Origin: a virus
Taxonomy: Duplodnaviria; Heunggongvirae; Uroviricota; Caudoviricetes
DNA length: 64,000 bases
Virus record (IMG/VR): IMGVR_UViG_2541047117_000001
Location: 24,841-88,840 of that record
Direction: 5' to 3' (one strand)
The position numbers and the translations under genes are program-made. The notes beneath the pieces were generated by a model that saw only the letters and a list, made by a program, of their open reading frames with translations, made no database searches and was not told the origin of the DNA. Of the stretch, positions 38,862 through 64,000 are shown piece by piece. How positions within the stretch are numbered: position 1 is the first letter of the stretch; each line of letters begins with the position of its first letter.

Positions 38862-39990
38862 CTTCTTCCTCTCCCTCTTTGATGAACTCTCTGTAGTTTT
38901 TGTAGATATACATCTTGATTACATCAATGTTAATCTCCTTGCTGTCGTAGCCTGTGAAGATTAGAGATTGATATTTCTTCTCTAGAGATTCATTATTTTT
39001 TACATTTGTAGCGAAATCTTTACGAGTCTCTGCATTAGCAAGACACTCTTCTAATATGTATTGAAGATTCGTAGTAATCGTCACAGCAAGTGCATCCCAT
39101 TGCTCTTGGAATGATTCCACTTCCTTGCGGAACTCTTCGGGAACTTGCTCGATTAATTCTTTCATTTTGCCAGTATGCCAAGCTTCTAGTTTTCGCTTGA
39201 GTGATAATCCGTAAGCTACACGGTGTACAGCCATATAATCATCGCCTTTTACCTTTAATCGCTTACCACTATCCCACTGCAATACCCAACCTTCTTCATT
39301 GGCAGGGATTTCACTCTTCATTTTGATTGCTTCATCAATGGTTAAATCTACTTGCTCAGTCACGGGCATATCTAACATTTGACCGACAGCTTTCAACGAA
39401 TCCATTGTTAAATCAATTGGAAACTTACCTCGGATGTCGATAGCTCCGATAAGAACTAAGTCAGACATTCCTTCGTAATCCACGACGATTCTTGTCTTAG
39501 GGTCGATGATTTCAACTAAAAGAGTAATTCCTCGTAGTGTTTCACGAAGCTTCTCATCTTTAATTATTTTGGTAGCATACTTTCTATCCCAAATTTCATT
39601 CGCAATAAATGCCTGCTTAGATTCGAAAGAGCCTCTAGTAGCCCAAAATAAAGCATTACCCATCATATAACTAATGCCTAATGAGCCATCGTGCTTCACT
39701 GTTAATGTCGGCGGATTACAATCACATCGTGGAATATCACGCTGATACTCTAAATTCTCATCTACATTGAAGAACTTTGGAAACGGCTTAGCAACGACTT
39801 CTAATGTATTCGTATCAAGGATTAATCCTCGTGCCATCATTGTTTCATTATTCCATCGACGGTCAACAACAGCTCGGTTTGTATAATTGAGAATTACTAG
39901 ATTCTTAAACCAAGGATGTCGTTTTTCAGCAATGTAGCCCTCTTCCTTTTCAAGTTGGAACTTCTTATAGTCCGCTAAAGTGAACTGCAT
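38854..39990 (-). CDS. rnl: RNA ligase (Rnl1-type nucleotidyltransferase)
   Basis: 378 aa; motif I KHDGSL, as in T4 RnlA KEDGSL; overlaps and is co-transcribed with pnk. Confidence 0.65.
   Translation of the reverse strand: MQFTLADYKKFQLEKEEGYIAEKRHPWFKNLVILNYTNRAVVDRRWNNETMMARGLILDTNTLEVVAKPFPKFFNVDENLEYQRDIPRCDCNPPTLTVKHDGSLGISYMMGNALFWATRGSFESKQAFIANEIWDRKYATKIIKDEKLRETLRGITLLVEIIDPKTRIVVDYEGMSDLVLIGAIDIRGKFPIDLTMDSLKAVGQMLDMPVTEQVDLTIDEAIKMKSEIPANEEGWVLQWDSGKRLKVKGDDYMAVHRVAYGLSLKRKLEAWHTGKMKELIEQVPEEFRKEVESFQEQWDALAVTITTNLQYILEECLANAETRKDFATNVKNNESLEKKYQSLIFTGYDSKEINIDVIKMYIYKNYREFIKEGEEEDA
38989..39010 (-). promoter_or_regulatory. conserved repeated element, copy 19; lies inside the RNA ligase coding sequence
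   Basis: TACAAATGTAAAAAATAATGAA, encoding ...ATNVKNNES... of the ligase; ~125 nt upstream of pnk. Confidence 0.55.
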
Positions 39991-50381: not shown

Positions 50382-51024
50382 GTTCTTCTCTCCTTTAATA
50401 CTGTTTGTTTAACCACTGATTCAATCTGTATTCCATCTCTTTCGTCTCTTTGAAGGCAACATACATAAGGTATGCAAACATGCTCAACCATAGCGAGCCT
50501 GCGATTGCTATAATTGCTACAAGAGTATATGGTATCAACACTTTATTCACCTCTTATTAAGTATCCCAATGCTCTGTCAAACTTAATAATGTCCAATACC
50601 CATAATCCATTTTTAAACTTGAAACTAGCACCATCTAATTCTTCTATCATGGACAGGTATTCTATCATTTTCCCGTATGAATCAAACTCTTTTTGAATTA
50701 TGTTCATTTGACCATCCCTCTTATTTATGTTCTTGGATTACCCTGATAGCATTCTTTAAACCTCTGATATGCCCACTGCCTTTTATGGCATTAGGTTTCT
50801 GTCTTTGCTCAGCTTTCTTGATTTCCTTCTTTAATTTAAATAGAATATCTTTCTTACGCATCTCGTTTCTCCTTAAATAACTTCACTATCAAAACGATGA
50901 GAACAATTAGTAAGGAAAAATTGATAAAACCGAAAATATTCATATTAGACACCCCTCAAAAGCCTTTGATTTACTGCTATTTTTGGATCTGATTTTTCCT
51001 GATTTATTAAGTAAAATATCTCTT

Positions 51025-51180
51025 TTATTTAATTAAAGGCTCTACTTTGAACACTCGTCCGTCCGATATATCATAGCTCTCACAGAAAGGGCAATGCTCA
51101 GCAACATCTCCTAAAATCGTATAGAAGACTTTTTCGCAATCATCTTCATCACAGTGCCATTGATTAAGTAACTCTGTCAT
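51025..51180 (-). CDS. zinc-ribbon micro-protein
   Basis: start moved to MTELLNQWHC (ATG 51180) after a GGAGAGGAAGAG RBS; HC...C...CPFC. Confidence 0.4.
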   Translation of the reverse strand: MTELLNQWHCDEDDCEKVFYTILGDVAEHCPFCESYDISDGRVFKVEPLIK

Positions 51181-51184
51181 ACAA

Positions 51185-51607
51185 TCACTCTTCCTCTCCA
51201 ACGAACTTAATGATTGTTCTACCTTCGTGACCATGAATATGCTGTACTGACTGCACATTAGGATAAATGTTATGAGAAATAACATAAGACTGTGACCACT
51301 CATGAATGCATTTACCACTAGGCATAACAACACCTTCGGCTACAATTCCAGTACCACTCACTCCACTGAAATCTTCATTTCTTTGCAGATAGTATTCTCG
51401 CAATCTATCCTTGCCCTTTGATTTTAACGGCACTAACTTTGTACCTTTATCTCTATTACAAACGAACTCTTTCACTTGTTCGATATTGTCATAGAATGAT
51501 AATGTCTTTATAGCGCTAGTCCACTCTAACAATGTGATGTTTGATTTCAGCGTTACACCTACAGCTAAAACCTTTTCATGTTCATCTATAATCTTAAATT
51601 GTTCCAA
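51185..51607 (-). CDS. hypothetical protein
   Basis: 140 aa; TTG start after AAGGAG. Confidence 0.45.
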   Translation of the reverse strand: MEQFKIIDEHEKVLAVGVTLKSNITLLEWTSAIKTLSFYDNIEQVKEFVCNRDKGTKLVPLKSKGKDRLREYYLQRNEDFSGVSGTGIVAEGVVMPSGKCIHEWSQSYVISHNIYPNVQSVQHIHGHEGRTIIKFVGEEE

Positions 51608-51622
51608 TGTTAATACTCCTTC

Positions 51623-51778
51623 TTACTTATTGAATCTGCACTGACTGCACACATTGTTACTCCAACTGTTATCACAAGATTTACATTCTTTTAATCTACA
51701 GTTTCCACAGTCTATGCCTTCCTTATCAATACACTTGTCAGTATGTATAAATTTGCAATAAAACATATCCTTAGTCAT
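51623..51778 (-). CDS. Cys-rich micro-protein (51 aa; absent from the ORF track)
   Basis: MTKDMFYCKF...CGNCRLKECKSC...CSQC; start overlaps the upstream stop. Confidence 0.3.
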   Translation of the reverse strand: MTKDMFYCKFIHTDKCIDKEGIDCGNCRLKECKSCDNSWSNNVCSQCRFNK

Positions 51779-51881
51779 CGTCGATGCATCCTACATATTC
51801 ATACTCATATTCATCGCCACAGCGACATATTTCACTTGAGCTAGCGCAAATATTGCATCTATAATCATCTAAATCCCACAT
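51771..51881 (-). CDS. Cys-rich micro-protein (36 aa; absent from the ORF track)
   Basis: MWDLDDYRCNICASSSEICRCGDEY...; GAGGTG RBS. Confidence 0.3.
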   Translation of the reverse strand: MWDLDDYRCNICASSSEICRCGDEYEYEYVGCIDDD

Positions 51882-51893
51882 ACAATCACCTCA

Positions 51894-52085
51894 TCATTTA
51901 GTGCCTGTTCTTAATTTCAACTCTAGCTCAGCCTTCTTTAGATAGAGCGTCGCTAATTTAGATTCTATAAACTCTACAACATCATCCTGACACACATTGG
52001 CTAGGTCAGACTCTAGGATGACTATATCTAAATTTATATCCTTTAATTTCTCTTCCATAGCGTTTCTCCTTAACATGACTAACAT
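51894..52085 (-). CDS. hypothetical protein
   Basis: 63-aa ORF. Confidence 0.35.
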   Translation of the reverse strand: MLVMLRRNAMEEKLKDINLDIVILESDLANVCQDDVVEFIESKLATLYLKKAELELKLRTGTK

Positions 52086-52267
52086 TTAATAGGACATTCA
52101 TTTGGAATTGGTGACTTATCGTACCAATCTAGATATTCATGCACATCCTTATTTAGCTTAGTGCAATGGATTTTTCTAACATCATCCCATGAATCCCGTG
52201 TGTATACCTTTGACACCTGAGCTAAAGGACACTGGTCACAGTTCTCTATCTCTATTTTCACTTGCAT
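52079..52267 (-). CDS. hypothetical Cys-containing protein
   Basis: 62-aa ORF. Confidence 0.4.
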   Translation of the reverse strand: MQVKIEIENCDQCPLAQVSKVYTRDSWDDVRKIHCTKLNKDVHEYLDWYDKSPIPNECPIKC

Positions 52268-52281
52268 CTACTTCACCTCTC

Positions 52282-52554
52282 CTACGTGATGTTGTCTCTG
52301 TATGAATAAATCAAGATTTTGCTTCGAAACTTCTCTGTGAGTCTCCTTGATTCTTCTTCGTCACCATAGATAACTACTTTGGTAATCAATAAATCGTCAC
52401 CTAGATATACTGAGTGCCAATCTATGTAACCAATCCATTCTTTATTTTTTACAATCATGACTCCTAATCCCATTTGTAAGTAAGCAAATAAACTATCTGC
52501 ATCACATTCTCGCTTTATATCTTCTGCACTTACACAGCTATCTGATATCCTCAC
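52282..52554 (-). CDS. hypothetical protein
   Basis: 90-aa ORF. Confidence 0.4.
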   Translation of the reverse strand: MRISDSCVSAEDIKRECDADSLFAYLQMGLGVMIVKNKEWIGYIDWHSVYLGDDLLITKVVIYGDEEESRRLTEKFRSKILIYSYRDNIT

Positions 52555-52566
52555 GTTAACACCTCT

Positions 52567-53295
52567 TTATGCGACATTTTCAATCGAGTGATTGAACACT
52601 TTATTAATCTTCGTCATGCCATGATGTATTTGCATTGAGATAGTTGCCCTGCTCTTCCCTAGCATCTCTCCAATTTCTGTTGGAGTATATCCTTGCAATC
52701 GAAGTTCAATGCAGGTTCTTTGCGTTTCAGATACTACAGCTAATCGTTGGGAAAGCCCTGTTTTGAGACCTGCTAATTCCATATCATGATGAGCGCTCTC
52801 ATCACTCAGTGTATCAATTAGCTTCAAGTTCTCTCCTTCTTTACTGTTACCAACTGTTGTCTCAATGCTCATTACTGTCATGTCCATAAATGACAAAGCT
52901 CTTTTCATAACCTCATCTGACGCATCAAATGTCTTTTGAATCTCTTCTAGAGTTTTCTTCCCTCGATGCTTACGCATGTATTTCGCAATCCGTGTAACCT
53001 CATAGCTTACTCGAACACCTTTGTATGTACTTCGTATTGCATTATAGATTTCCGTTCGGATATATCTAACGGCTATCGTTGAGAGTTTGCCTTTTGATTC
53101 ATCATAAGCATCTAATGACTTCATCCACCCAATGATTCCAAATTGCGCTAAATCATCAAATGTATAACCATGTGTCTTTTCATAATAAGAATAGTAAGTA
53201 AAATATTTACGTATCGTATCAGCTACTAATTTATATCCGTTTTCGGGCAATGTTAAATCTTTTTCTTCTATAGCTTGTAATTCATCTATTTGCAT
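52567..53295 (-). CDS. sigma-70-family RNA polymerase sigma factor
   Basis: 242 aa; region-2-like FGIIGWMKSLDAYDESKG...IRTEIYNAIR and region-4 HTH TPTEIGEMLGKSRATISMQIHHG. Confidence 0.65.
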   Translation of the reverse strand: MQIDELQAIEEKDLTLPENGYKLVADTIRKYFTYYSYYEKTHGYTFDDLAQFGIIGWMKSLDAYDESKGKLSTIAVRYIRTEIYNAIRSTYKGVRVSYEVTRIAKYMRKHRGKKTLEEIQKTFDASDEVMKRALSFMDMTVMSIETTVGNSKEGENLKLIDTLSDESAHHDMELAGLKTGLSQRLAVVSETQRTCIELRLQGYTPTEIGEMLGKSRATISMQIHHGMTKINKVFNHSIENVA

Positions 53296-53310
53296 TGTTA
53301 TTTTCTCCGA

Positions 53311-53332
53311 TTCATTATTTTTTACATTTGTA
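53311..53332 (-). promoter_or_regulatory. conserved repeated element, copy 25a, upstream of the sigma factor gene
   Basis: TACAAATGTAAAAAATAATGAA. Confidence 0.6.
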
Positions 53333-53388
53333 TCATATCAAATGGGGAATAGCATGTCAACTACCAATGCATAGAAAAAGGAGATAAG

Positions 53389-53410
53389 TTCATTATTTTT
53401 TACACTTATC
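53389..53410 (-). promoter_or_regulatory. conserved repeated element, copy 25b
   Basis: GATAAGTGTAAAAAATAATGAA. Confidence 0.55.
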
Positions 53411-53423
53411 TCCTTGGTACTTA

Positions 53424-53948
53424 TTATTTATTCAATTGGTAAGCCTCTTTGTGACGGATATTTGCAATGATGATATCTACAATGTAGTCACTTGTAAGCT
53501 CTTCTGTACTTAGGCTCAACACATCTAGCTCAGAACCCACGATAATACGCTCAAATCCTTTGTTAATCGTATCAAACATATTGTCCGCTATCTCTTTCTC
53601 TTCACGCTCCTGTTTGCGCTTAATAAGCGTTTCGGGGCTTGCATAAAGGTAAACCACTAGAGCCTTCTCTTTCAGTTGTTCTTCAAGGTATTTGACTTGC
53701 TCTTCATCTAATCGTGAGTAACCATCGTATAACTCTGTATACACGAGATTTGACATGTAATATCTATCTACAATTAGATTGTCAGCATGGTCAGCGATTC
53801 CTTTTACATACTGGAATAAATCCGTAGTAGGAAGCTGTGCAATTTGGAATGAGTTACCCTTGATGACACCGTATTTTAGTCTCTCAGCTAACTTCTGAGC
53901 AACGGTTGTTTTAAAATTCAGCTCATTTCCTTCTAAAATAATAAGCAT
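53424..53948 (-). CDS. dNMP (thymidylate-type) kinase-like protein
   Basis: 174 aa; degenerate P-loop ILEGNELNFKTT; NMP-kinase-like layout; low certainty. Confidence 0.4.
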   Translation of the reverse strand: MLIILEGNELNFKTTVAQKLAERLKYGVIKGNSFQIAQLPTTDLFQYVKGIADHADNLIVDRYYMSNLVYTELYDGYSRLDEEQVKYLEEQLKEKALVVYLYASPETLIKRKQEREEKEIADNMFDTINKGFERIIVGSELDVLSLSTEELTSDYIVDIIIANIRHKEAYQLNK

Positions 53949-53966
53949 ATGTATTCCCCTTTTTCT

Positions 53967-54788
53967 CTATTTAATAATACGAACCTTCGCACCACGTTTA
54001 CCGATGCTATTCATTTCACTTGCACTACCGACTAGAATATCAATTCTATTCCCTTTGATAGCTCCGCCTGTATCAATCGCCACGAAGCGTCCATATCCTT
54101 CGATTTCTACGGTTGAACCCAATGGGATTACAGATGGGTCTACAGCAATGATTCGCTGTCCATTGTGATGAATCGTATTCGTGATGTCGTGACCGCTTTT
54201 CGTCAATACTTTACCACCATATGTCCCACCGTTCTCTGACGGATGATTTGTGTAAGCTGTGATAACGAAATTCATCCAACTACCACTAGACTCACTCTCC
54301 TCTTTTTGAGGTGTTGGAGCTGACTGCATCACGGGAGTTTGTGCAGGTTCTTTTTTCGCTTCTTCCTTCTTTACTTCTTTTGGTTTCTCTTCGGATTTCT
54401 TCTGAATAGGAGTATAGCTCACTTTTTCTAGTGAGCTAACTTTCTCCTGTAATTTCTGCTTGTCCGATTCGAGCTCAGAAATCTTAGCATCTCTCTGCTT
54501 GATTTCTTCTTCAAGGTTAGACTTTTGCTGTTCTAGGTCATTCTTCATGTTGTCTAAGTCTGTTTTTTCCTTCTCTAACCCTTCAACCTTCTCTTTTGAA
54601 GACGATAGTTCTCCCTCGATTTTTTGAATTTTGGAATCACCCTCAGTTAACTTCTCTTGATATGATTGAATCTGTTGCTGTGTGGAATTATAGTAATCAT
54701 ATGAAAGTTTGCTAGCAGTGCCAATTACGACAACTGCTAGCAGAGTAGTTAAAATAATAAAGAGCTTTTTCTTGCTAAAGGTGGGCAT
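53967..54788 (-). CDS. 3D-domain (MltA-like) cell-wall-associated protein with N-terminal TM and coiled coil
   Basis: 273 aa; C-terminal 3D-domain signature (conserved Asp residues ...IAVDP...IDTGGAI...). Confidence 0.55.
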   Translation of the reverse strand: MPTFSKKKLFIILTTLLAVVVIGTASKLSYDYYNSTQQQIQSYQEKLTEGDSKIQKIEGELSSSKEKVEGLEKEKTDLDNMKNDLEQQKSNLEEEIKQRDAKISELESDKQKLQEKVSSLEKVSYTPIQKKSEEKPKEVKKEEAKKEPAQTPVMQSAPTPQKEESESSGSWMNFVITAYTNHPSENGGTYGGKVLTKSGHDITNTIHHNGQRIIAVDPSVIPLGSTVEIEGYGRFVAIDTGGAIKGNRIDILVGSASEMNSIGKRGAKVRIIK

Positions 54789-54790
54789 TA

Positions 54791-55906
54791 TCAGCCGATT
54801 AATTCCTTAACAGCTTCCACACCTTGTTTTAATACGTCTACATCTTCTACACTTGTGTAGTCAGTAGTACCTAGAGTCTTCTCAAAGATTCCTTTTAATT
54901 TACGCTTTTGAACTGGTTTCAGAGTACCAATGCTTTCTTTCAACCAAGCGTGCATTTCTTCTGCTGTCATTTCAGCCTTTTGAGTTTTAGCAAACTTCTC
55001 AGCTTGACGCTCAGTCTCTACTTTTTGCTCAGCTTTTGCTTTCTCTACAGCTTTTTCATCGTTGTCATATTCTTTTAGAACTGCATTCTCAAATGCTTCT
55101 AAGAACTCATCAACACTGTTGTTGATTTTGTCAGGCATATGACGGAAACGTGAACCACAGATTACATTACCTTCTGAACGGAATCGTAGGAAACGTTCTG
55201 ATTTAGCGACACCCTTTTTAGCTGTCGTTACTAAGTCACCATAGATGATTAAGTCACTTTCACGAAGAACGATATCCGATGTTTTACCTAAGCAGTTAAG
55301 CGTAGTTAAATCATAAGAAGAACCATCACGTTGCTCAACCTTCTTTGTCTTACTGTGACCAATGATGAATACTCCAAATCCTGCTTTCTTTAAACGGTCG
55401 ATTTGCTCATAGATTACATCTGCAACTAGGTTGTAACCTTTACCGTATGCGATATCAGAAATATCTTCAATTTTCGCAGTAGACTTAATCTTCTGTTTTT
55501 TAATGATGTGTTTCTCCGCTAAGTCCTCAAGTGCTGTAATTGTATCAATAACAATTAACTTGTATGGAATTGTCTTACGGTTCTCGATTAACTCATCAAT
55601 AACCTCAACGAATCCTCTTGCGTCATTGTCAGTCTTCTCTTCTTTTACTTCTTCATCTTCGTCCTCATCATCTTCTTCTACATACTCGAAAACAGAGATT
55701 GGAAGTGCGTGGATTCCATTTAAAGCTTTGTAACCTACTTCTGTACCAAGTAGTAACATCTTGCTTAAATCTCCACCGTAATACTTCATAGCTAAATCAT
55801 ATAGAAATGTTGTTTTACCAAATTTACTTGGTGCAAACAGACACATAAGATACTGTTCTAATTCTGCTTTTACTTTATTCGGGTTTAATGCATGTAAAAA
55901 TGACAT
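54791..55906 (-). CDS. RecA-fold P-loop ATPase (phage AAA/Sak4-like)
   Basis: 371 aa; Walker A APSKFGKTTF; Walker B LIVIDTI; acidic linker. Confidence 0.5.
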   Translation of the reverse strand: MSFLHALNPNKVKAELEQYLMCLFAPSKFGKTTFLYDLAMKYYGGDLSKMLLLGTEVGYKALNGIHALPISVFEYVEEDDEDEDEEVKEEKTDNDARGFVEVIDELIENRKTIPYKLIVIDTITALEDLAEKHIIKKQKIKSTAKIEDISDIAYGKGYNLVADVIYEQIDRLKKAGFGVFIIGHSKTKKVEQRDGSSYDLTTLNCLGKTSDIVLRESDLIIYGDLVTTAKKGVAKSERFLRFRSEGNVICGSRFRHMPDKINNSVDEFLEAFENAVLKEYDNDEKAVEKAKAEQKVETERQAEKFAKTQKAEMTAEEMHAWLKESIGTLKPVQKRKLKGIFEKTLGTTDYTSVEDVDVLKQGVEAVKELIG

Positions 55907-55922
55907 TCAATCACGCTCTCTT

Positions 55923-55946
55923 TTCAATTATTTTTTATATTTGTGG
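55923..55946 (-). promoter_or_regulatory. conserved repeated element, copy 26a (variant)
   Basis: CCACAAATATAAAAAATAATTGAA. Confidence 0.4.
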
Positions 55947-55985
55947 AGAAGAAAAGGATATACTTCTCCCCTCCATGTATGTAAT

Positions 55986-56007
55986 TCATTATTTTTTACA
56001 CTTGTAA
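55986..56007 (-). promoter_or_regulatory. conserved repeated element, copy 26b
   Basis: exact consensus; a 7-bp-stem hairpin at 55944..55968 lies between the two copies. Confidence 0.65.
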
Positions 56008-56022
56008 GTATAAGTTAACGGC

Positions 56023-57081
56023 TTACCACAGGTCGTCCCCTTCTTCACTGTCACCAGTGTCAGCAAATGGATTGTCATCGCCAGTGTCCTCAGCCTTTTC
56101 TTCTTCTACTGGTAGAACGAAGTCTTCTTCTTTGTACTTAGCAGTAACAAATGACTCAGCTTCTACACCTTCAATTTGAAGTTCGTTTGTGTACTCTCGT
56201 GAAGTACGTTTCTCAAGAGATTTATGCTTCTCTTTACCTACTGTAGCAAACGGGTTCTTCTTATCTACTGGTTTTGCATCTGTTTCCTCAGCCTCTACGA
56301 ACTCCACTCGGTTTACTACTTTACCGTAAACTTTCATGAATGCACCGAATTTAAGCTTCTTGAACGCCTTGATAAGACCTTCTAAGTCCTTGTCGTTGCC
56401 ATCAATGATGAATGAACCGTTAGCAAATTTACCGCCATATCCAATTGTACGACCAAGTACTTTGGCTTTCTTCGTTTCACGGTCTACTTCCATGCCTACG
56501 AATACCATTTCTTGTTCAAATACTGCTGTCTCTTCGAAATTTTCTGCCTCGAAATCAATGTCTTTCTTTAGTAAACCTAGAGATTTCATGACAAAACGTT
56601 TTTGCTCTTTCTTCTCGCCATCTTTCTCGTACTCAGAGATTTCAACCTCACCGTTTAAGTAGATGTGCATTCCATCTTGAAGCTCATTGAAGATTTCTTC
56701 AACTGCATCATAAGGATGTAGATTTTCAGTGATAATCTTTCCTTCTTCGTCACGTTGTAAGCCAACTCGAACACCGAATAGGTGATAACCGTCAGGTAAG
56801 TTGTCACGGCTTTCAAATGGGAAGCGCTTACCTTCTTTCTTCTTCATATTGTAAGCGTATACTTCATCTTGCTCCATACCGAATAGTTCAACAGGTACTT
56901 CATTCTTTTCGCCCTCAGCATCATTTGTGATTACTGTGAAACGTAAGCTCTTATAAGGCTTTCCTGAGCCTGTTTCTCCCTCTTTAAAAGCATGGTCGCT
57001 ATCCATACGAGATACAACACCTTGTAATTTGATTGCACTCTTAGTTTGTTCTAATACTACTTCTTCCTTCTTCTTCGCCAT
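56023..57081 (-). CDS. putative single-stranded DNA-binding protein (tandem OB-folds?) with an acidic C-terminal tail
   Basis: 352 aa; acidic tail ...DTGDSEEGDDLW ending in an aromatic residue; sits in the replication module. Confidence 0.4.
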   Translation of the reverse strand: MAKKKEEVVLEQTKSAIKLQGVVSRMDSDHAFKEGETGSGKPYKSLRFTVITNDAEGEKNEVPVELFGMEQDEVYAYNMKKKEGKRFPFESRDNLPDGYHLFGVRVGLQRDEEGKIITENLHPYDAVEEIFNELQDGMHIYLNGEVEISEYEKDGEKKEQKRFVMKSLGLLKKDIDFEAENFEETAVFEQEMVFVGMEVDRETKKAKVLGRTIGYGGKFANGSFIIDGNDKDLEGLIKAFKKLKFGAFMKVYGKVVNRVEFVEAEETDAKPVDKKNPFATVGKEKHKSLEKRTSREYTNELQIEGVEAESFVTAKYKEEDFVLPVEEEKAEDTGDDNPFADTGDSEEGDDLW

Positions 57082-57099
57082 TTACTGCACTCCTTAAAA

Positions 57100-57121
57100 T
57101 TCATTATTTTTTATACTTGTA
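57100..57121 (-). promoter_or_regulatory. conserved repeated element, copy 27
   Basis: TACAAGTATAAAAAATAATGAA, upstream of the SSB-like gene; a degenerate half-copy lies at 57189..57207. Confidence 0.6.
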
Positions 57122-57278
57122 AAGAAAACAAAAACCCCTAATTTATTTATTAGAGGTTGAAAGAAGCCCTCCACACAATAAATAACTTTTCATTATTTAT
57201 TACGTTTAAAGGGCTTTTCCTTAACAACTGCATTCATTATATCATTCATTTGTAAGCATTGTCAAATTGGCTTTTATC

Positions 57279-57668
57279 TTACGGCAACATTTTTGCCAAT
57301 TTCATTGCTCTCGCATGAATGTCTTTCTTATGTAATAAGAAGATATCCTTTGGAGATAGGCTGTTCTTCTTTACTATGCTTTGGAACAAAGCGAAATCAT
57401 CTGCATTCAAGTCAAATCGGAATAATTTTACAAGAGAGATGTGAGGGTCTTCACCATAAAGGACTTCAAAATCCTCTATAGCAATGCTTGTGTTGCGTAG
57501 TTTATACATTCGCATGTCGAAGAGATGTTCCCATTTTTGTTTTTCAATGTTTAATACTTCATTAGTGAAATATTTTATATCATCTTCGTCATCAAACAAG
57601 ACTGAAAAATCTTTCTCCTCTGTGTGAGTTAGTCCTAAGATGAGCGAAAATCCTTTCAAATCCTGCAT
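57279..57668 (-). CDS. hypothetical protein
   Basis: 129-aa ORF. Confidence 0.45.
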   Translation of the reverse strand: MQDLKGFSLILGLTHTEEKDFSVLFDDEDDIKYFTNEVLNIEKQKWEHLFDMRMYKLRNTSIAIEDFEVLYGEDPHISLVKLFRFDLNADDFALFQSIVKKNSLSPKDIFLLHKKDIHARAMKLAKMLP

Positions 57669-57970
57669 TGTATCGACTTCCTTCCATTATTAAATTTTCT
57701 GACCGCTACGTTTACTAAGTCAAATAATAAAACATTATTACCTAATATGTACGTATAACAATTTTTATAGCTGTAACCCAACAGCTAGATTATGTACTTT
57801 GGCATAAAGATGCACTCATCGTTCCTTTGAATCTGAGATGAACGACGTCCGACATCGACCAAATATAACAACATTTGTTAAAAACCTTATATAGACCTTA
57901 ATGATATTAACATTCAATGAAGGATTTTGCAACGATTTTATGCATATTTTATCCATTTATTAAATACTTT

Positions 57971-57995
57971 TTCATTATTTATAACTTCTGTTGCA
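57971..57995 (-). promoter_or_regulatory. degenerate copy of the repeated element in the 57668..58069 regulatory intergenic region
   Basis: TGCAACAGAAGTTATAAATAATGAA. Confidence 0.3.
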
Positions 57996-58068
57996 AGACG
58001 AGACACCCTTAGCTATACTTTTGCTAAAGGTGTCTCAGCAATAACAGTGGTTCGACATGGTTGCTCCA

Positions 58069-58341
58069 TCATTCCTCACCTTCTTCCGCTGTTGGCTTTA
58101 ATTCGAAGATATCTTTAATATCTATCTCTAAAGCTTCACAAATTACATATGCATAAGTTAGCTTCCACAGGTTTTGTTTATTAATTAGAGCAATGAACCC
58201 CCTATACTTGATATGGATACCGTATTCATCAACAATCTTCTCCCATAGTTGTTTCGCATTCATATCTTTTCTTTCTAGATACATTTTGAATTTATCTTTA
58301 TTCATCCTTGCTTCGAGTTTATGCTCAACTTTATAACCCAT
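58069..58341 (-). CDS. XRE-family helix-turn-helix transcriptional regulator
   Basis: 90 aa; C-terminal HTH-like LTYAYVICEALEIDIKDIFEL. Confidence 0.5.
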   Translation of the reverse strand: MGYKVEHKLEARMNKDKFKMYLERKDMNAKQLWEKIVDEYGIHIKYRGFIALINKQNLWKLTYAYVICEALEIDIKDIFELKPTAEEGEE

Positions 58342-58356
58342 AATTCAAATCGCTCC

Positions 58357-59373
58357 TTAATTGTCTTGTCCTAAAAAGTCACCATATAATTCTTTTATAT
58401 TTTTAACATTACAATATTTTTTCATTGGATAGAAATTATTAATATCAAATCTAATTGCTATATTTTTATAATCTTCTGTGCTTAGGTAGTACTCGCCTTT
58501 TTCTTCCATTATTTTCTTAGCCATATATAATTGTCCACTTTTTATGATGCTTTTAGTTTTTAATTGAGGATATCCTAAAACTTCACCGATTAAATTAACA
58601 CGTCTATAGATAACAGATTCTTTAATAGCTTGATGATAACTTCCTGTTCTTGTTATAGAAGGACGGAATACATATTCATTATCAACCAATTCAGTAACGG
58701 CACGGATATTTTCCCTTTGCTCCATGTCTCCGTTTTTCTTCCAGTATCTCTTCTCTTGCATAGCTTGTTCTAGCATAAGTACAGTACGAGCATCAACTTC
58801 TGTGAAAGCTCCACCAATATTTAAAGGCACTTTTGTATCTTCTATATCACTATTAAGTCCTTTTTCTTGCATAAATTCTAGAGCCTGTTCTACGTCTGAC
58901 TTTTTCAGTTCTCTAATTTCTATAGCTTTTTCTCCACAAATTCCTTCAAATAATAATCTAATTATTGTTGAGTCTTGATAGTTATAACAATCTGATTCGA
59001 TTTTTAGTAGTTGTTTTTTAGTTATATATAGATTTTTTACATTTTCACTGATATTTTCAAACCATTTAGCGCTAACATCTAGTAGAGGATTATTAGTTTT
59101 TTTGTAGTTATTTTCTACTGCCCATTTCATATACGCTGAAATTACACGACCGTAAACTTCTGTTGCCTGTGCGCTTCCACGTAATTGAATTAAAAGCTCT
59201 TCAATTTCTTCTAATGTAAAATCATATAAATCTTTATTTAGAGTTTCTTCCATTTGTTCAGCTTTGGTGAATATTCTATTGTAGTATGATTTAGTTGTAT
59301 CGTTAGTATAGTTAGTTAAAAATAAGTCTTTTGCAGTTTCACCGTTCTTTAGCTCATCCATTCCGTGAGTCAT
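58357..59373 (-). CDS. hypothetical protein; candidate SPbeta MrpR/YopR-type repressor (recombinase-like fold), low certainty
   Basis: 338 aa and AT-rich; N-terminus faintly resembles an integrase SAM-like domain; no catalytic R..H..R..Y tetrad recognised. Confidence 0.35.
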   Translation of the reverse strand: MTHGMDELKNGETAKDLFLTNYTNDTTKSYYNRIFTKAEQMEETLNKDLYDFTLEEIEELLIQLRGSAQATEVYGRVISAYMKWAVENNYKKTNNPLLDVSAKWFENISENVKNLYITKKQLLKIESDCYNYQDSTIIRLLFEGICGEKAIEIRELKKSDVEQALEFMQEKGLNSDIEDTKVPLNIGGAFTEVDARTVLMLEQAMQEKRYWKKNGDMEQRENIRAVTELVDNEYVFRPSITRTGSYHQAIKESVIYRRVNLIGEVLGYPQLKTKSIIKSGQLYMAKKIMEEKGEYYLSTEDYKNIAIRFDINNFYPMKKYCNVKNIKELYGDFLGQDN

Positions 59374-59559
59374 TTCTTACCACTTCTCCTTTATACCTCT
59401 GTAACTTTGTAATTTCTACTTTACCTGTAACTCAACTGTTTAAATTGGTTTAAGTTGACTATGTTCGTAGTCTATGTATGTGTATGTGTGTGTATGTTCG
59501 CTGACTATTGCCAGCAGTCAAATTATACCATATATAAAATCCATTGCCAATACCAAATT

Positions 59560-59580
59560 TCCTTATTTTTTCCATTTGTC
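59560..59580 (-). promoter_or_regulatory. degenerate copy of the repeated element upstream of the 338-aa candidate regulator gene
   Basis: GACAAATGGAAAAAATAAGGA. Confidence 0.3.
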
Positions 59581-59863
59581 TAGATATTAACAGAGAATTT
59601 ATACATTAAATGTATATTCAACGTATATTATAGATGTTAATTTAACGATATATATTGTGTGTGTGCTACCTTAACATCCTATGTTTACTGCATACAAATA
59701 GTATACAATCATAATATGTACACTGTCAATGCATTATTGTCGGTTTTTAAGTTCGATTTATTATTATTTACACTATATGCTAGATTTTAATTATTTTTTA
59801 TATCTCCGACTTAGATATATATAACATATGAGACCTTCGCATTCAAGTAATAAAAATTCAAAT

Positions 59864-59897
59864 TAACAAAAAAAATAAGACAGTGTAATACTGTCTT
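59864..59897 (-). terminator. rho-independent terminator
   Basis: AAGACAGT / ACTGTCTT hairpin then a run of 8 T on the minus strand. Confidence 0.6.
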
Positions 59898-59941
59898 AAT
59901 AATTGCCTTTACATTTGAAACATTTCAGTAAATATTAACCT

Positions 59942-60277
59942 TTATTTTAGAGAGTCAGATGTCGATTCCGTTTGAGGTGTCTGAGAAGCCGTTTGAGCGT
60001 CTGATTTTTTTAAAGCTATAATTTCATTTAGTTTCTTTAGAATAAGCCCTAGAGCTAAGAATAATGCTCCTACAAGCAATCCTGAGAATATCATTGTATA
60101 TCCGTATAAACTATATGACCTTGCTATTCCTTTATAAACTTCGTTATAGAACTCTAGCTCATAGTAAGATTCCTTCATTTCGTTTGCTACGTTTAAATTA
60201 GCGTTTCCAACATTCATCATTATTAGGCATGAAATAATCCCGATTGCTATAAATATAAGGTGTAAGTACTTCTTCAT
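59942..60277 (-). CDS. membrane protein
   Basis: 111 aa, two TM helices; followed by an intrinsic terminator. Confidence 0.45.
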   Translation of the reverse strand: MKKYLHLIFIAIGIISCLIMMNVGNANLNVANEMKESYYELEFYNEVYKGIARSYSLYGYTMIFSGLLVGALFLALGLILKKLNEIIALKKSDAQTASQTPQTESTSDSLK

Positions 60278-60493
60278 TAGTTTAATTCTCCTGTTGTAAT
60301 GTAATATTTGTTAAATACATTATAGCAATCAATAAAGTTTACAGTCAATCTGAGTAAATGAGATTCGGTTTATTGTTTTTTGAATGAATCCTTTGATGAT
60401 TATTTTTAGATGCAGGCGAAGCCTATATATTAATTAATTATTAAGGTCTTTTTAAAAGATTTGTTTTTTTAAAAGAATATTGTCTTATTATAC

Positions 60494-60750
60494 TATCACC
60501 GTGTGATAGGCGGTCGTGTATCATGTGGTGATAGGTGGGTACTATCATGCTGTGATAGGCGGAAATCCCGTGTATCATTTCATGATAGGCGGAAATTGTG
60601 GATAATTTCAAAAAATCTGTGGATAAGTCGCCTATCATATGGTGATAGGCGTCGCCTATCATGTGGTGATAGGCAGTGTATCACACGGTGATAGGCGGGA
60701 ATCGTTTCGTGTATCATGTGGTGATAGGCAGTGTATCATACCGTGATAGG
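60494..60750. repeat. iteron array: nine 17-bp palindromic units TATCA-N5-TGATAGG(C) spaced ~23-32 bp, interrupted by two DnaA boxes
   Basis: units at 60494, 60519, 60543, 60573, 60633, 60657, 60679, 60712, 60734; each has inverted arms (GCC)TATCA / TGATAGG(C). Confidence 0.7.
60597..60626. promoter_or_regulatory. two direct perfect DnaA boxes (TGTGGATAA = TTATCCACA) 21 bp apart inside the iteron array
   Basis: 60597..60605 and 60618..60626. Confidence 0.6.
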
Positions 60751-60803
60751 CGGAAGGATTATTTTTCTGAAAAAATAAAAAAGCAAGAGGAAAATCCCCT
60801 TGC

Positions 60804-61811
60804 TTAAATTTCTACGATATATTCATCGTGTGTTTTGAATATGTATGTTGTATCTTCTACGTTGAATCCGATTTGCTTTCCGACCTCTTCTGCGATAATT
60901 GTTTTAAACTTATCTTGAACGTGTGTTTTAGCAAAGTCATGAGCGCATAACACGTAGACTGAATTTTTCTCTGAATCTAAGGCAAGTACAGCGTCCTTAA
61001 ACCAAACATCGAATGATGGCTTAGCAATTCTCTCTTGAAGAGATGTGAGAATCTTCTCTCCTGCTTCGATGCACTCAGGAGCGATTTTTTCTCTTATGTA
61101 TGTTGCTTTATTTTCTTCTTCAATCTTTTCTTTGGCTTCACGAATCTGAGATTTGCTTCTAAATAACTCAGCGTTTTCAATTAACCCTTCGATTACTTTG
61201 CTGTTTTTTAGCTCATTAGTCGCAATGTCAATATCCTTATAATCTTCCATATATGTATCATGGTCTTTTTTTAGTTTAGCAGGTAGCTCTTCATAGAGTT
61301 CATTAGTTAATAGAGGTACAAACCTTCTAATCTTAAACAGAGGACTCACAGAGCGGTTGTTATCCTTTGTATCACGTCTGTTGAAGATGACAATAAAGTT
61401 ATGCTCTTCTAATGTCTTTAGACATCCTTTTACAAAGTTCTTACTCTTCTTCATCTTCAATGCGATAGTGTCTATGTCAGGGAAGCAGAAGTCTTTTTTG
61501 CCGTAAGCATGACGTCTTAGATGGATATACACTTGAATGCATTCTGAACCTAATACAGCTCCCCAAAAGTCTAGTAGATAGTTTTGAATCATAGTGAAGT
61601 CTTCTGCGTCCAATGTAGGAACACATTCACCAATCGAGTTAAGATTCAATGCTTTAATCTCTTCGAACTCTACAATACGTTGCTCTCTAATTGGTACACG
61701 TCTTGAGCCATTTCTAGTATTTTGAGTTGTGAATTTTCCTGTATGAACCTCTCTATAGTGAAGATATCGTTCATTTTTATATCCTGCATATAAATCTTTG
61801 TTATTTTCCAT
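60804..61811 (-). CDS. putative replication initiator (Rep-like winged-helix protein)
   Basis: 335 aa; sits 40 bp from an iteron array with two DnaA boxes; function inferred from context only. Confidence 0.45.
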   Translation of the reverse strand: MENNKDLYAGYKNERYLHYREVHTGKFTTQNTRNGSRRVPIREQRIVEFEEIKALNLNSIGECVPTLDAEDFTMIQNYLLDFWGAVLGSECIQVYIHLRRHAYGKKDFCFPDIDTIALKMKKSKNFVKGCLKTLEEHNFIVIFNRRDTKDNNRSVSPLFKIRRFVPLLTNELYEELPAKLKKDHDTYMEDYKDIDIATNELKNSKVIEGLIENAELFRSKSQIREAKEKIEEENKATYIREKIAPECIEAGEKILTSLQERIAKPSFDVWFKDAVLALDSEKNSVYVLCAHDFAKTHVQDKFKTIIAEEVGKQIGFNVEDTTYIFKTHDEYIVEI

Positions 61812-62057
61812 TTGTGTTTCCTCCTAAATGCGCTGTTTAGGAGCTTCACTCATATTTACTTATCCCATTGTTTATGATATTATAAACATACAAATCTAAT
61901 GTTAACGAGACTTGCATCTACTCATTTGAGTGAAGCTCCATTTTTGGGATACTTCGTAGATACAATCTCTCCAATGCCCATTCATAAAGTTTTGGTTGGT
62001 CGCCATTTCAACTTTGAGAGTGGGTTTTTTCATGCTCTTTTTTACCTCTTAAATCAA

Positions 62058-62357
62058 TCATGATGCTATATTCAACTCATAAACGTTGAAATTCTGTCTA
62101 CCATAGTAACGCATAACTTTCAAAAAACCCTTTTCTTCTAGTGATTTAATGAATTTAATGACGCTTCTGCGAGTTAAAGAGCATTTATGAGCGATTTCTT
62201 CATATGCCATTTCGATACTGCTTCCATTGCCTTCCACACATAGAGTCAATAAAACTAGCTTTTCGTTAGCAGTCAACTCTTCTGTTCGAATAATATTGTT
62301 TGCAATGTGTGTCATGTATCTCACCTCAACCTTCTTTAATAAGTGAATTTGATGCAC
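62058..62357 (-). CDS. winged-helix DNA-binding protein
   Basis: 99 aa with a wHTH (EIAHKCSLTRRSVIKFIKSLEEKGFL); degenerate motif upstream. Confidence 0.45.
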   Translation of the reverse strand: MHQIHLLKKVEVRYMTHIANNIIRTEELTANEKLVLLTLCVEGNGSSIEMAYEEIAHKCSLTRRSVIKFIKSLEEKGFLKVMRYYGRQNFNVYELNIAS

Positions 62358-62390
62358 CTATTCAACAAAAAAATATGGTGTATTTCAATC

Positions 62391-62417
62391 TTACATTATT
62401 TATTACATTTGTGCAAT
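62391..62417 (-). promoter_or_regulatory. degenerate copy of the repeated element upstream of the wHTH gene at 62058..62357
   Basis: TGCACAAATGTAATAAATAATGTAA. Confidence 0.35.
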
Positions 62418-62565
62418 GGAAGAATTGTAGAATCATAATGAAATTTGTAACCATTTGATTTTACGTGTCAAACTGTATCTCTAGCACTTTCATAGTATAG
62501 CACCCTTGAAATCCACTGTCAATGGATTTGTGTATAAAAAAAGAGAGATTATAATAATCTCCCTC

Positions 62566-63153
62566 TTATCTATTCAAATCACCAAGAGAAGGCATTACAG
62601 CAGGCTTACTTACTGGTTCTTCCTTCTTCACTTCAACTGGTTTTTCTTCTCCAAGCATTCGCTTAGGTTGAGCTTCTTGGCGTTTCTCTTTAATAACTTT
62701 TGGCACATCTAAACTACTAACCTCTTCTACAACAGGTTCTTCTACTTCATTTACTACTTCCTCTACGACCTCTTGTACAGGCTCTTGAGGAGTATCTGTT
62801 ACTTCCACAGTCTTTTCTTCAACTGTTGATGCTATTTCTTCTACAACTTCCTCTGCAACCTCTTGAACAGGTTCAGATTGTGTTTGTATTGGTGTTGCTT
62901 GTGTTTTAGCGACAGGAGTTGGTATTTGCACAGGTGTAGGATTGTCCAAATCGACCATTCCCATCTCTATCAGAAGTTTAAGTTTTTTAACGTCTATATC
63001 CCCGAATTTTTGCATGAAATAATCTAAAACAAATCGGAATGAATCTGAGAAGTTATCTTGGTTATTATACCAATCAACGAATTTTTGGTCGTCTACTCCA
63101 AACTTATAGATAATAGTTGAACCGACTTGTTTATCCTTTTTAGTTGCACTCAT
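62566..63153 (-). CDS. putative segregation adaptor (ParR/AlfB/Alp7R-like by position)
   Basis: 195 aa; ~70-aa folded N-terminus then acidic P/V/E-rich repeats; immediately downstream of the actin-like ATPase gene. Confidence 0.35.
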   Translation of the reverse strand: MSATKKDKQVGSTIIYKFGVDDQKFVDWYNNQDNFSDSFRFVLDYFMQKFGDIDVKKLKLLIEMGMVDLDNPTPVQIPTPVAKTQATPIQTQSEPVQEVAEEVVEEIASTVEEKTVEVTDTPQEPVQEVVEEVVNEVEEPVVEEVSSLDVPKVIKEKRQEAQPKRMLGEEKPVEVKKEEPVSKPAVMPSLGDLNR

Positions 63154-63195
63154 AATTGTAATACCCTCCTGTTAGTCAAAAGCAAAAGACGTAAT

Positions 63196-64000
63196 TTACG
63201 CCTTCTGCTTCTCTTTCTTAGCCATGTATTGTTCTTTTAATTGTGGAAGTAATACATTTAAGAATACATCCATGCCTTCTACGTTGATTGTTGTAGCGTA
63301 CTTCTCAGGAATCCATAGGAGCTTTCCACGGCAATCATCTGCAACTGCTTTAAGCGGGTTATATAGCTTGTCTTTAAGCGTGATAGAGCCACCACCGAAT
63401 ACAGAGATTAAACGAGGTTGTTTTCTAGCTCCATGAACAACTAATTGCTCAACAAATTTGTGAATTAGTGTTGCTTGGTCTGATGAATTGTCTTTCAGTG
63501 TAGCAACTGCTTCTACATGGAATGCATCATCTGAATCTTTTACGATTTCCATGTATTCATGTCGTGTTAATGCAGGGAATCTCATTGCCTTCTTGAACAC
63601 TGGAAGAGCTTTAGTGATTGCATAGCCAACTCCTAAGTCGTCTCCACCACTTAAATCATCAATTTGCTTATAGCCTTTTAAGATTCCAACGTCAGTTGTT
63701 CCCTCTCCGATATCAGTTCCACAAGTCATTTTCATGTTGAACACATCTTCACCTGTAAAGCTATCTAATTGATATTCCCATTTTAATTCTTCAAAAATAT
63801 CATCATTTCTCCATTGTCCTTTGTTATCAAGGATAAGTGCGTAGTTTGCACATGCACCCTCTTGTAATGCATAAACAAATTCAAAAGTGATTGATACTTT
63901 TACGAATGTTGTACCAACATGAACCATTACTTCGTGTGTATTATTCATGAAACGCTCTTCAAAGGCTTTTGCCGTAGTAGCGTCGTATTCTTTAATAGGT
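63196..64000 (-). CDS. actin-like segregation ATPase (ParM/Alp family); N-terminus lies beyond the window end
   Basis: phosphate-2 motif DIGEGTTDVGIL; frame stays open to position 64000. Confidence 0.6.
   Translation of the reverse strand, partial: PIKEYDATTAKAFEERFMNNTHEVMVHVGTTFVKVSITFEFVYALQEGACANYALILDNKGQWRNDDIFEELKWEYQLDSFTGEDVFNMKMTCGTDIGEGTTDVGILKGYKQIDDLSGGDDLGVGYAITKALPVFKKAMRFPALTRHEYMEIVKDSDDAFHVEAVATLKDNSSDQATLIHKFVEQLVVHGARKQPRLISVFGGGSITLKDKLYNPLKAVADDCRGKLLWIPEKYATTINVEGMDVFLNVLLPQLKEQYMAKKEKQKA

Follow-up and report, generated by a model that had tools for sequence, protein, structure and literature searches.

Does a large phage that carries replisome genes of its own also persist in its host as a plasmid? 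The question is raised by a stretch of viral DNA (positions 24,841 to 88,840 of IMG/VR record IMGVR_UViG_2541047117_000001; 64,000 nucleotides, called the window throughout), whose last part, positions 59374-64000, has all of its genes on the minus strand. In the order of transcription, they encode an actin-like ATPase of the ParM/Alp type that runs off the window, a protein of 195 amino acids (aa), a small winged helix-turn-helix (wHTH) protein, and a Rep protein, whose gene is followed by an array of palindromic repeats, a membrane protein gene, and an AT-rich tract. A preliminary description, made from the letters and open reading frames alone, proposed that this region combines an iteron-type theta origin with an actin-based partition system and that the phage might be episomal. 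Homology of Rep, an origin layout conserved among its relatives, the fold of the ATPase, and permuted contigs support that proposal. With a probability of roughly 0.75, we read the region as the maintenance module of a plasmid prophage (phage-plasmid), that is, of a temperate Bacillus cereus-group phage of about 153 kb that most likely persists as a free circular plasmid rather than integrating.

The Rep initiator and the repeat array behind its gene

The 335-aa Rep-like protein of the preliminary description turns out to be a full-length homologue of RepA, the initiator of pBS72, a theta plasmid from Bacillus subtilis. The two proteins match by tblastn at 32% identity over 88% of the query (NZ_KX711616, positions 126-1160; E=1e-38), and in a MAFFT alignment they are 35% identical, conserved blocks being spread over the full length. 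Rep matches the Pfam families HTH_36 (9e-07, residues 94-140) and DnaA_N (1.4e-05, residues 252-308), both of which pass the Pfam cut-offs, as well as phrog_26369 (“replication initiation protein,” 7e-43) among the PHROGs and DnaA domain I (4tps, E=0.007) among the structures in the PDB. By tblastn, Rep finds matches in 41 plasmid records (Bacillus, Paenibacillus, and Cytobacillus) and 9 phage records, and the isolated phages FADO, PJN02, 2S-4, PK-3, and Jenst carry homologues. Collection-wide scans based on the Rep alignment found one locus among viral contigs and two among species-representative genomes, numbers too small for a statistic on the whole family.

The array of nine palindromes was confirmed. 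A scan of the window with TATCANNNNNTGATAGG yields 11 strand-matches, which correspond to 9 sites because 2 of the 9 are palindromic through their flanks and are matched on both strands; all lie within 60494-60750, and shuffled sequences lead one to expect 0.01. The perfect 15-nt core, TATCA-N5-TGATA, occurs nowhere else in the window. The units share one orientation (9/9) and an extended consensus of approximately GTG-TATCA-N5-TGATA-GGCG, and they are spaced, start to start, at 25, 24, 30, 60, 24, 22, 33, and 22 bp. Within the 60-bp central gap are the two perfect DnaA boxes noticed from the outset (TGTGGATAA at 60597 and 60618), which are in direct orientation, 21 bp apart; the rest of the window contains one more such box, with 0.68 expected per window. 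The distance from the rep stop codon to the end of the nearest repeat was originally put at 40 bp but measures 53 bp, and an intrinsic terminator (60781-60805) occupies most of it. The 74-bp block at 60420-60493, next to the repeats, is likely to act as the DNA-unwinding element.

Sequences from the element's own lineage, five in all, resolve into two haplotypes, and every one of them has the nine units at identical spacing. Between the two lineages, none of the 90 positions in the repeat arms varies, versus 16 of the 165 other array positions (Fisher p = 0.0009). The DnaA box at 60618-60626 is kept in all relatives, and that at 60597-60605 reads TTATCCACG in the lineage represented by contigs L004-L006. 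The 74-bp block is invariant (100%) across lineages; the next 130 bp carry 18 differences.

A similar succession of elements recurs in most of the Rep family members examined. In pBS72, the DNA after repA contains a terminator and then palindromic copies of ATTAAAATTTAAT, with one TTATCCACA box among them; counting the window, 7 of the 9 family members examined have the layout of rep, terminator, dyad repeats around a central DnaA box, and AT-rich DNA. The region after rep in pCR3 is laid out like the pBS72 origin, and a Bacillus rugosus contig has the same layout. A 148-kb plasmid of Bacillus velezensis has six GGTTTCAATTTTTG units and a perfect DnaA box, phage PJN02 has six or more units, each about 23 bp long and spaced at 23 bp, with a central perfect DnaA box, and in a contig of Cytobacillus horneckiae, GCAGAAA...TTTCTGC units flank two one-mismatch boxes, with AT-rich DNA behind them. 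Two members depart from the layout: a Bacillus thuringiensis plasmid, whose repeats come with no better than a one-mismatch box, and a Paenibacillus plasmid, where rep is abutted by another gene. The sequence of the repeat is different in each family member, and variation of this kind within a constant layout is as expected if the repeats are initiator-specific iterons. This conserved order, with dyad iterons flanking a central DnaA box and an AT-rich block behind them, offers a simple rule for finding origins across this Rep family.

The resemblance to pBS72 thus extends from the initiator, which is homologous over its full length (32-35% identity) and has the same architecture of a wHTH and a DnaA-domain-I-like module, to an origin situated right after rep and its terminator, with short dyad repeats around a DnaA box in AT-rich DNA. 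The two differ in the repeat itself (TATCA-N5-TGATAGG here and ATTAAAATTTAAT in pBS72), in the nine tightly phased copies and two DnaA boxes of the window as opposed to the single box of pBS72, and in the carrier, since pBS72 is a conjugative plasmid, whereas here a Rep paired with a ParM system resides in a phage genome of about 153 kb. The derivative pNDH33 is a theta-replicating plasmid of about 6 copies (PMC5615212), and the pBS72 replicon studies of Titok (2003 and 2006) are cited in PMC8708921 and PMC5615212. The maintenance of the phage lineage would in this way be tied to an experimentally studied replicon family.

Nine same-orientation repeats, presumed to bind Rep, together with two DnaA boxes and a block of 16% GC, also recall classical iteron origins of the RK2, pPS10, and F type, from which the window differs in the internal dyad symmetry of each unit. 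Dyad-symmetric iterons are known from ori lambda, where they are bound by the O protein; the likeness lies in inverted-repeat iterons, in the window presumably bound by initiator dimers as well, beside an AT-rich region. Both the wHTH protein and Rep weakly match “replication initiation O-like” PHROGs, and there is no close homology.

Partition genes and the carrier molecule

The ATPase gene is cut by the end of the window, and its N terminus was recovered from Logan contig L003, which is 100% identical to window positions 50804-64000 and extends beyond them. The phosphate-1 and adenosine motifs, which were to be looked for once the N terminus was known, are present: DxGN (phosphate 1), DIGEGT (phosphate 2), and GGGS (adenosine) are invariant in seven aligned homologues, and the part of the open reading frame inside the window contains DIGEGTTDVGIL. 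A search of 5.8 billion proteins returned eight homologues. An AlphaFold2 (AF2) model of protein P0001, which is 98% identical to the ATPase over the in-window part, has a pLDDT of 90.2 and a pTM of 0.88, and its best structure matches in the PDB are Alp7A (5ec0; E=1.3e-19), B. thuringiensis ParM, pSK41 ParM, Ta0583, and R1 ParM, with a probability of 1.00 for Alp7A and the ParMs. The model supports an actin fold with all three nucleotide-binding motifs, as anticipated when the protein was first called an actin-like ParM/Alp ATPase. Among the PHROGs, the ATPase matches phrog_691 (“partition protein,” 2.7e-12); its Pfam matches to ALP_N and MreB-like_C are below the cut-offs, and a sequence search of PDB chains gave nothing useful, such that structure comparison alone identified the fold. 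By tblastn, it matches 293 plasmid records, annotated as ParM or StbA, at 33-42% identity, and only 2 records in the phage collection, both of them the genome of BMBtp14 (30% identity over half of the protein).

The gene for the 195-aa protein begins 42 bp downstream of the parM-like gene, the position held by ParR, AlfB, or Alp7R elsewhere. In eight close homologues, the N-terminal 70 residues and the tail (...AVMPSLGDLNR) are invariant, and the acidic, proline-rich middle varies by insertions and deletions. The genes directly after two homologous plasmid ParMs encode proteins of the same three-part plan, which share the NxQxNxSxSxR motif and a terminal D-x-N tail and have a linker that is likewise acidic. 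From position and architecture, we infer a ParR-like adaptor, in which a putative DNA-binding head would be joined by a flexible linker to a tail that binds ParM, a plan that fits the arrangement in PDB entry 4a62 (among the structure matches of P0001), where the tail of an adaptor binds ParM. To this extent the original placement of the protein holds; the AF2 prediction for 62566..63153 has three helices at residues 22-63, but the model is poor (pLDDT 48).

Upstream of parM, where centromere repeats were to be looked for, positions 7274-7327 of L003 contain 5.4 copies of the palindromic 10-mer ATTATATAAT that adjoin the parM promoter at its -35 box, one unit more than in relatives. We consider these repeats a candidate centromere. 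The region (L003 7248-7412; by window numbering, about 64400-64564) has a perfect 20-bp direct repeat, AGATGTTTAAAAATGGTGAA, on either side, and the second copy of this repeat contains the parM start region.

The system resembles the type II ParMRC/Alp systems (R1 ParMRC, pSK41 ParM, B. thuringiensis pBMB67 ParM, and Alp7A/Alp7R of pLS20) in the actin fold with its phosphate-1, phosphate-2, and adenosine motifs, in the small gene directly after that for the ATPase, and in the repeat array at the upstream promoter. It departs from them in its low identity to solved ParMs (14-18%) and in its long candidate adaptor (195 aa), which has an acidic linker and no recognizable match to a ribbon-helix-helix (RHH) or HTH family.

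On the same molecule as the Rep/ParM module are phage genes for a replisome, nucleotide metabolism, a sigma factor, and a repressor. The window encodes DnaE, a DnaB-like helicase, primase, RecJ, ribonucleotide reductase, ligase, a sigma factor, and NAD-salvage enzymes, and its DnaE is 62-64% identical to that of Geobacillus virus E3 and of the Tsamsa-like phages of the B. cereus group. The module had been described as sitting beside the replisome genes of the phage. The DnaE, DnaB-like helicase, and primase genes are indeed present, but Rep may itself serve the phage: no second initiator is recognizable in the window, and as the only recognizable one in a stretch that also holds replisome genes, Rep may be the phage's own initiator rather than part of a module merely beside the replisome.

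Relatives of the element occur in four independent isolate assemblies of the B. cereus group, in each case as a stand-alone contig (153,621, 152,585, 153,560, and 153,147 bp), with the module 60.8, 28.7, 97.0, and 39.3 kb, respectively, from the contig start; IMG/VR lists the 153,621-bp relative as a complete viral genome. That contigs of equal length begin at different places is indirect evidence for a molecule that is circular and free, or else circularly permuted, over an integrated prophage. At the nucleotide level, megablast searches with 59400-64000 and 20001-45000 against phages (50,697 records) and with 39001-64000 against plasmids (72,556 records) produced no match.

Relatives among plasmid prophages and alternative readings

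Bacillus plasmid prophages with ParM-type partition have already been described, and nothing here overturns current understanding. The element adds to the B. cereus group a probable phage-plasmid lineage of about 153 kb that is without nucleotide match in phage and plasmid records, and it compares with known phages as follows.

(i) IEBH, vB_BtS_B83, and Bp8p-C are established plasmid prophages with a ParM, an adaptor, and an initiator, and many putative ones have been catalogued in B. cereus sensu lato (PMC8026635, PMC11526630). In these temperate phages, a ParM-like protein, a small adaptor, and a replication initiator maintain the genome as a circular plasmid, as we propose for the element. 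Their backbones, of about 50 kb in IEBH and B83 and 151 kb in Bp8p-C, are unrelated to it, and they lack this ParM (for which BMBtp14 was the only match in the phage collection); a DnaE replisome of its own and an MrpR-type repressor further set the element apart.

(ii) The Tyroviruses (Tsamsa, Thrax1-5, Izhevsk, PBC2, and Kirov) are large temperate siphoviruses of the B. cereus group with backbones among the nearest to that of the element (DnaE, 62-63% identical; MrpR-like protein, 35-39%), that of Geobacillus virus E3 being marginally closer. The presence of a parM, an RHH gene, and an initiator gene has led to the proposal that they pass through a plasmid-prophage stage, and Tsamsa-like phages have been suggested to integrate as well (PMC9703825). 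Nucleotide-level similarity is absent, and their ParM and initiator are not detectably homologous by tblastn to those of the window; thus, the maintenance module seems to have been exchanged.

(iii) In FADO, vB_BsuS_PJN02, 2S-4, and PK-3, from the Bacillus subtilis group, Rep belongs to the same family (27-29% identity), and its gene precedes dyad repeats that have a DnaA box at their center. Genomes nearly identical to those of FADO and PJN02, and carrying their Rep, have been deposited as circular plasmids of 162-166 kb. These phages differ from the element in host group and repeat sequence and have no detectable homologue of its ParM. Non-homologous or distant maintenance modules in related backbones, both in the FADO/PJN02 group and in the Tyroviruses, fit modular exchange between phages and plasmids.

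Might the Rep/iteron locus instead be a general phage origin for lytic growth, with the actin-like protein positioning phage DNA and any lysogeny proceeding by integration? The status of Rep as the sole recognizable initiator in 64 kb that include replisome genes would suit such a role, as would its homologues in five isolated phages (FADO, PJN02, 2S-4, PK-3, and Jenst) and the integration suggested for Tsamsa-like relatives (PMC9703825), and the permuted stand-alone contigs could be replicating phage DNA. We nevertheless think this unlikely, given that the relatives of the ParM are nearly all plasmid-borne (293 plasmid versus 2 phage records), that the closest relatives of Rep are plasmid initiators, including that of an experimentally studied theta replicon, and that genomes with the FADO/PJN02 Rep are also on deposit as circular plasmids (162-166 kb). 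In addition, isolate genome assemblies contain the element together with a repressor gene, and no integrase-family match was seen in the window. Lytic-origin and plasmid-prophage roles are not mutually exclusive. They could even be combined in one origin serving two lifestyles, in which the RepA-type initiator would use its DnaA-domain-I-like module to load the phage's DnaB-like helicase and DnaE replisome, the origin would pass from a low-copy plasmid mode to the lytic mode under control of the MrpR-type repressor, and the fast-diverging wHTH gene cassette would be an exchangeable determinant of incompatibility or immunity between co-resident relatives. We regard this combination as rather doubtful; if true, the prophage-plasmid would replicate largely independently of the host replisome.

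The palindromes themselves could be something other than an origin, namely, operator or centromere sites for a dimeric protein such as the 85-aa wHTH protein or the 195-aa protein. Dyad symmetry in each repeat is typical of the sites of dimeric regulators, and the array contains, at 60582-60611, a weak promoter-like site. However, dyad-symmetric iterons are known from ori lambda, promoter prediction in the region found no strong promoter overlapping the array, and equivalent arrays follow rep where the ParM differs or is absent (pCR3 has ParA). The parM promoter is abutted by a separate repeat array, and the central DnaA boxes and the invariant flanking AT-rich block fit an origin. Moreover, lineages with invariant repeat arms and 97% identity in Rep are down to 62% identity in the wHTH protein, so Rep, not the wHTH protein, would read the repeats. 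Taken together, these points make operators or a centromere quite improbable. Less probable still is a decaying, non-functional remnant of a captured plasmid, as all open reading frames are intact, Rep and ParM keep 97% identity across lineages with many non-coding differences, and conservation extends to the repeat arms, the DnaA box, the AT-rich block, and the promoters and terminators.

Several points weigh against a plasmid prophage with its origin at the array. The window contains no structural or lysis genes, and the permuted contigs could be replicating or packaged phage DNA in the cultures. The candidate centromere lies beyond the window end. The 195-aa protein has no Pfam or PHROG match, and its N-terminal domain and its two plasmid counterparts find nothing in Pfam at E values of up to 10. 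GC skew displays no switch of strand bias at the array beyond the local effect of the repeats themselves, and the genes flanking the putative origin on both sides share one orientation; hence, composition gives no independent sign of a bidirectional origin. Finally, conflicting accounts of the need for DnaA in pBS72 render the role of the window's DnaA boxes uncertain. The Titok 2006 abstract is said to report that pBS72 needs RepA and an iteron origin with DnaA dispensable and reportedly proposes that a DnaA-like domain of RepA contacts the replicative helicase. The pBS72-derived replicon has elsewhere been called DnaA-dependent (PMC5615212).

Returning to a plasmid prophage, we infer how its module might work, from each act of binding and the place of unwinding to the recruitment of a helicase, the choice of adaptor and centromere, and the roles in regulation. 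Rep, probably in the form of dimers, would bind the array of nine dyad-symmetric iterons shortly downstream of the rep gene, the two central boxes may be occupied by host DnaA, and binding would open the adjacent 74-bp AT-rich block. The C-terminal DnaA-domain-I-like module of Rep would then recruit a replicative helicase, either that of the host or the DnaB-like helicase of the phage, and theta replication would start. The level of Rep would be set by the small wHTH protein and the structured rep leader. Filaments of the ParM-like actin would push sister copies apart through the 195-aa adaptor, which would be bound to the 10-bp repeats, rich in AT, that lie upstream of parM a little beyond the window end, and the MrpR-type repressor next door would keep the lytic genes silent.

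Regulatory features and neighboring genes

The features of the region are collected in Table 1.

TABLE 1 Coordinates, in window numbering, of the putative maintenance module and the features adjoining it
Feature	Position	Strand	Remarks
MrpR/YopR-type repressor	58357..59373	-	Tyrosine-recombinase fold; predicted lysogeny control; adjoins maintenance module
AT-rich intergenic tract	59374..59941	-	568 bp, 26.9% GC (window, 36.7%); TG/TA microsatellite at ~59476-59497; putative repressor regulatory region
Predicted two-pass membrane protein	59942..60277	-	111 aa; own strong promoter, 60319-60348; terminator, 59876-59898
Candidate DNA-unwinding element	60420..60493	.	74 bp, 16% GC; two 14-nt repeats, G(T/C)TTTTTTAAAAGA
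Iteron array, putatively Rep-binding	60494..60750	.	Nine direct repeats; dyad-symmetric core TATCA-N5-TGATA; GG(C)G flank
Two perfect DnaA boxes	60597..60626	-	TTATCCACA on minus strand; central gap of array
Intrinsic terminator of rep	60781..60805	-	11-bp stem, then T-run; invariant in relatives
Rep, initiator of pBS72 RepA family	60804..61811	-	335 aa; N-terminal wHTH and C-terminal DnaA-domain-I-like module
rep leader, non-coding	61812..62057	-	246 nt; 16-bp long-range inverted repeat, 61840-61855/61924-61939, just 5' of rep ribosome-binding site
Small winged-helix protein	62058..62315	-	85 aa from ATG at 62315; 99 aa from GTG at 62357
Strong sigma-A-like promoter	62494..62522	-	TTGACA, 17 nt, TG-TATACT; 11/12 consensus, extended -10; before wHTH gene and rep
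Candidate ParR-like adaptor	62566..63153	-	195 aa; N-terminal domain of ~65 aa, acidic Pro/Glu/Val linker, invariant C-terminal tail
ParM/Alp actin-like ATPase	63196..64000	-	3' two-thirds of gene; full gene encodes 400-403 aa and starts ~400 bp beyond window end

The promoter upstream of the wHTH gene is conserved in related contigs, and terminator prediction found no terminator between this gene and rep; with a strong promoter before the one and nothing to stop transcription before the other, the two probably form one operon. The wHTH protein matches HTH_36 (3.3e-08) in Pfam and, among phage initiator PHROGs such as phrog_270 (1.9e-12), their DNA-binding N-terminal parts. The preliminary description rightly called it a winged-helix protein but gave it 99 aa, which requires a GTG start. 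The ATG at 62315 is preceded by a good ribosome-binding site, and gene callers assign 85 aa on contigs L003, L004, and L010-L012 and 93 aa on L005 and L006; its length is probably 85 aa. Its 62% identity between the lineages of the window and of L004/L006 compares with 97% for Rep and ParM and about 95% for the flanking non-coding DNA. The divergent cassette consists of the wHTH gene (62058-62357) and its 5' leader (about 62316-62400) and may be an exchangeable determinant of incompatibility or immunity. The protein itself would regulate rep expression or copy number. We also considered that it might be a truncated Rep paralogue competing for the iterons, an idea left unsupported by BLASTP, in which the wHTH protein and Rep have no detectable similarity.

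The leader of rep has a predicted RNA fold (z = -2.26) and is about 95% conserved; we treat it as non-coding because a 1-nt insertion or deletion in relatives shifts the frame of its 43-aa open reading frame. It could control rep by attenuation or by antisense transcription. A promoter-like site lies on its opposite strand at 61855-61883, and an Rfam search identified no known RNA family anywhere in the window.

The preliminary description assigned a 540-bp AT-rich tract to the origin. The tract exists, at 568 bp and with the TG/TA microsatellite that had been noted, but it appears to be the promoter region of the MrpR-type gene. Its open reading frames are short and confined to the plus strand, and it contains, besides the terminator of the membrane protein gene (59876-59898), two minus-strand promoters (59700-59729 and 59522-59550), each matching 11/12 consensus positions and conserved in relatives. 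Because these conserved promoters face the repressor gene, the tract is best read as the regulatory region of that gene, outside the origin. As a candidate unwinding element it was rejected on the same ground and because a terminator-bounded gene separates it from the repeats. The promoters at 59700-59729 and 62494-62522, both on the minus strand, share an extended AAT(G/C)CATTGACAGTG around the -35 box and might be co-regulated. Scanned as CACTGTCAATGSATT, the motif shared by two promoters is not significantly enriched in the window (10 matches, 4.6 expected), and its reading as an SPBRE-like operator was set aside.

The membrane protein encoded between the putative origin and the repressor gene has no significant Pfam or PHROG match. 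It is not obviously part of the replicon and may be a “moron” expressed during lysogeny.

The adjoining repressor-type protein matches both MrpR families in Pfam (MrpR_N_CB, PF22822, 1.5e-19; MrpR_C_cat, PF22823, 1.3e-15) and the structure of SPbeta MrpR (PDB 8a0a; E=1.5e-22, residues 31-335). In SPbeta, MrpR acts as the master repressor; its fold resembles that of recombinases, but it does not function as one (PMC10516654). Homologues with 35-39% identity are present in all Tsamsa-like Tyroviruses, FADO, PJN02, and Geobacillus virus E3, where they are annotated as integrases or tyrosine recombinases; one of the “three tyrosine recombinases” of the Tyroviruses may therefore be a repressor. An MrpR repressor joined to plasmid rather than integrative lysogeny would aid comparison in work on the lysis-lysogeny decision.

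Elsewhere in the window, the genes for nicotinamide phosphoribosyltransferase and ribose-phosphate pyrophosphokinase (292-2040 and 2535-3344) constitute an NAD-salvage pair, and phages are reported, in a preprint (bioRxiv 10.1101/2024.02.11.579819), to counter NAD-depleting defenses with such pairs. Genes for a polynucleotide kinase-like protein and an RNA ligase are adjacent at 37857-39990. We take this pairing to resemble a tRNA-repair pair. The 140-aa product of 51185-51607 has a match to Pfam family PF26761 (Acb5) on the identical contig L003 and, to go by the family name, is a possible anti-defense protein. The 352-aa protein encoded at 56023-57081 matches the Pfam family of SPbeta YorF (PF27337, on the identical contig) and phrog_2367, a further link to an SPbeta-like gene pool.

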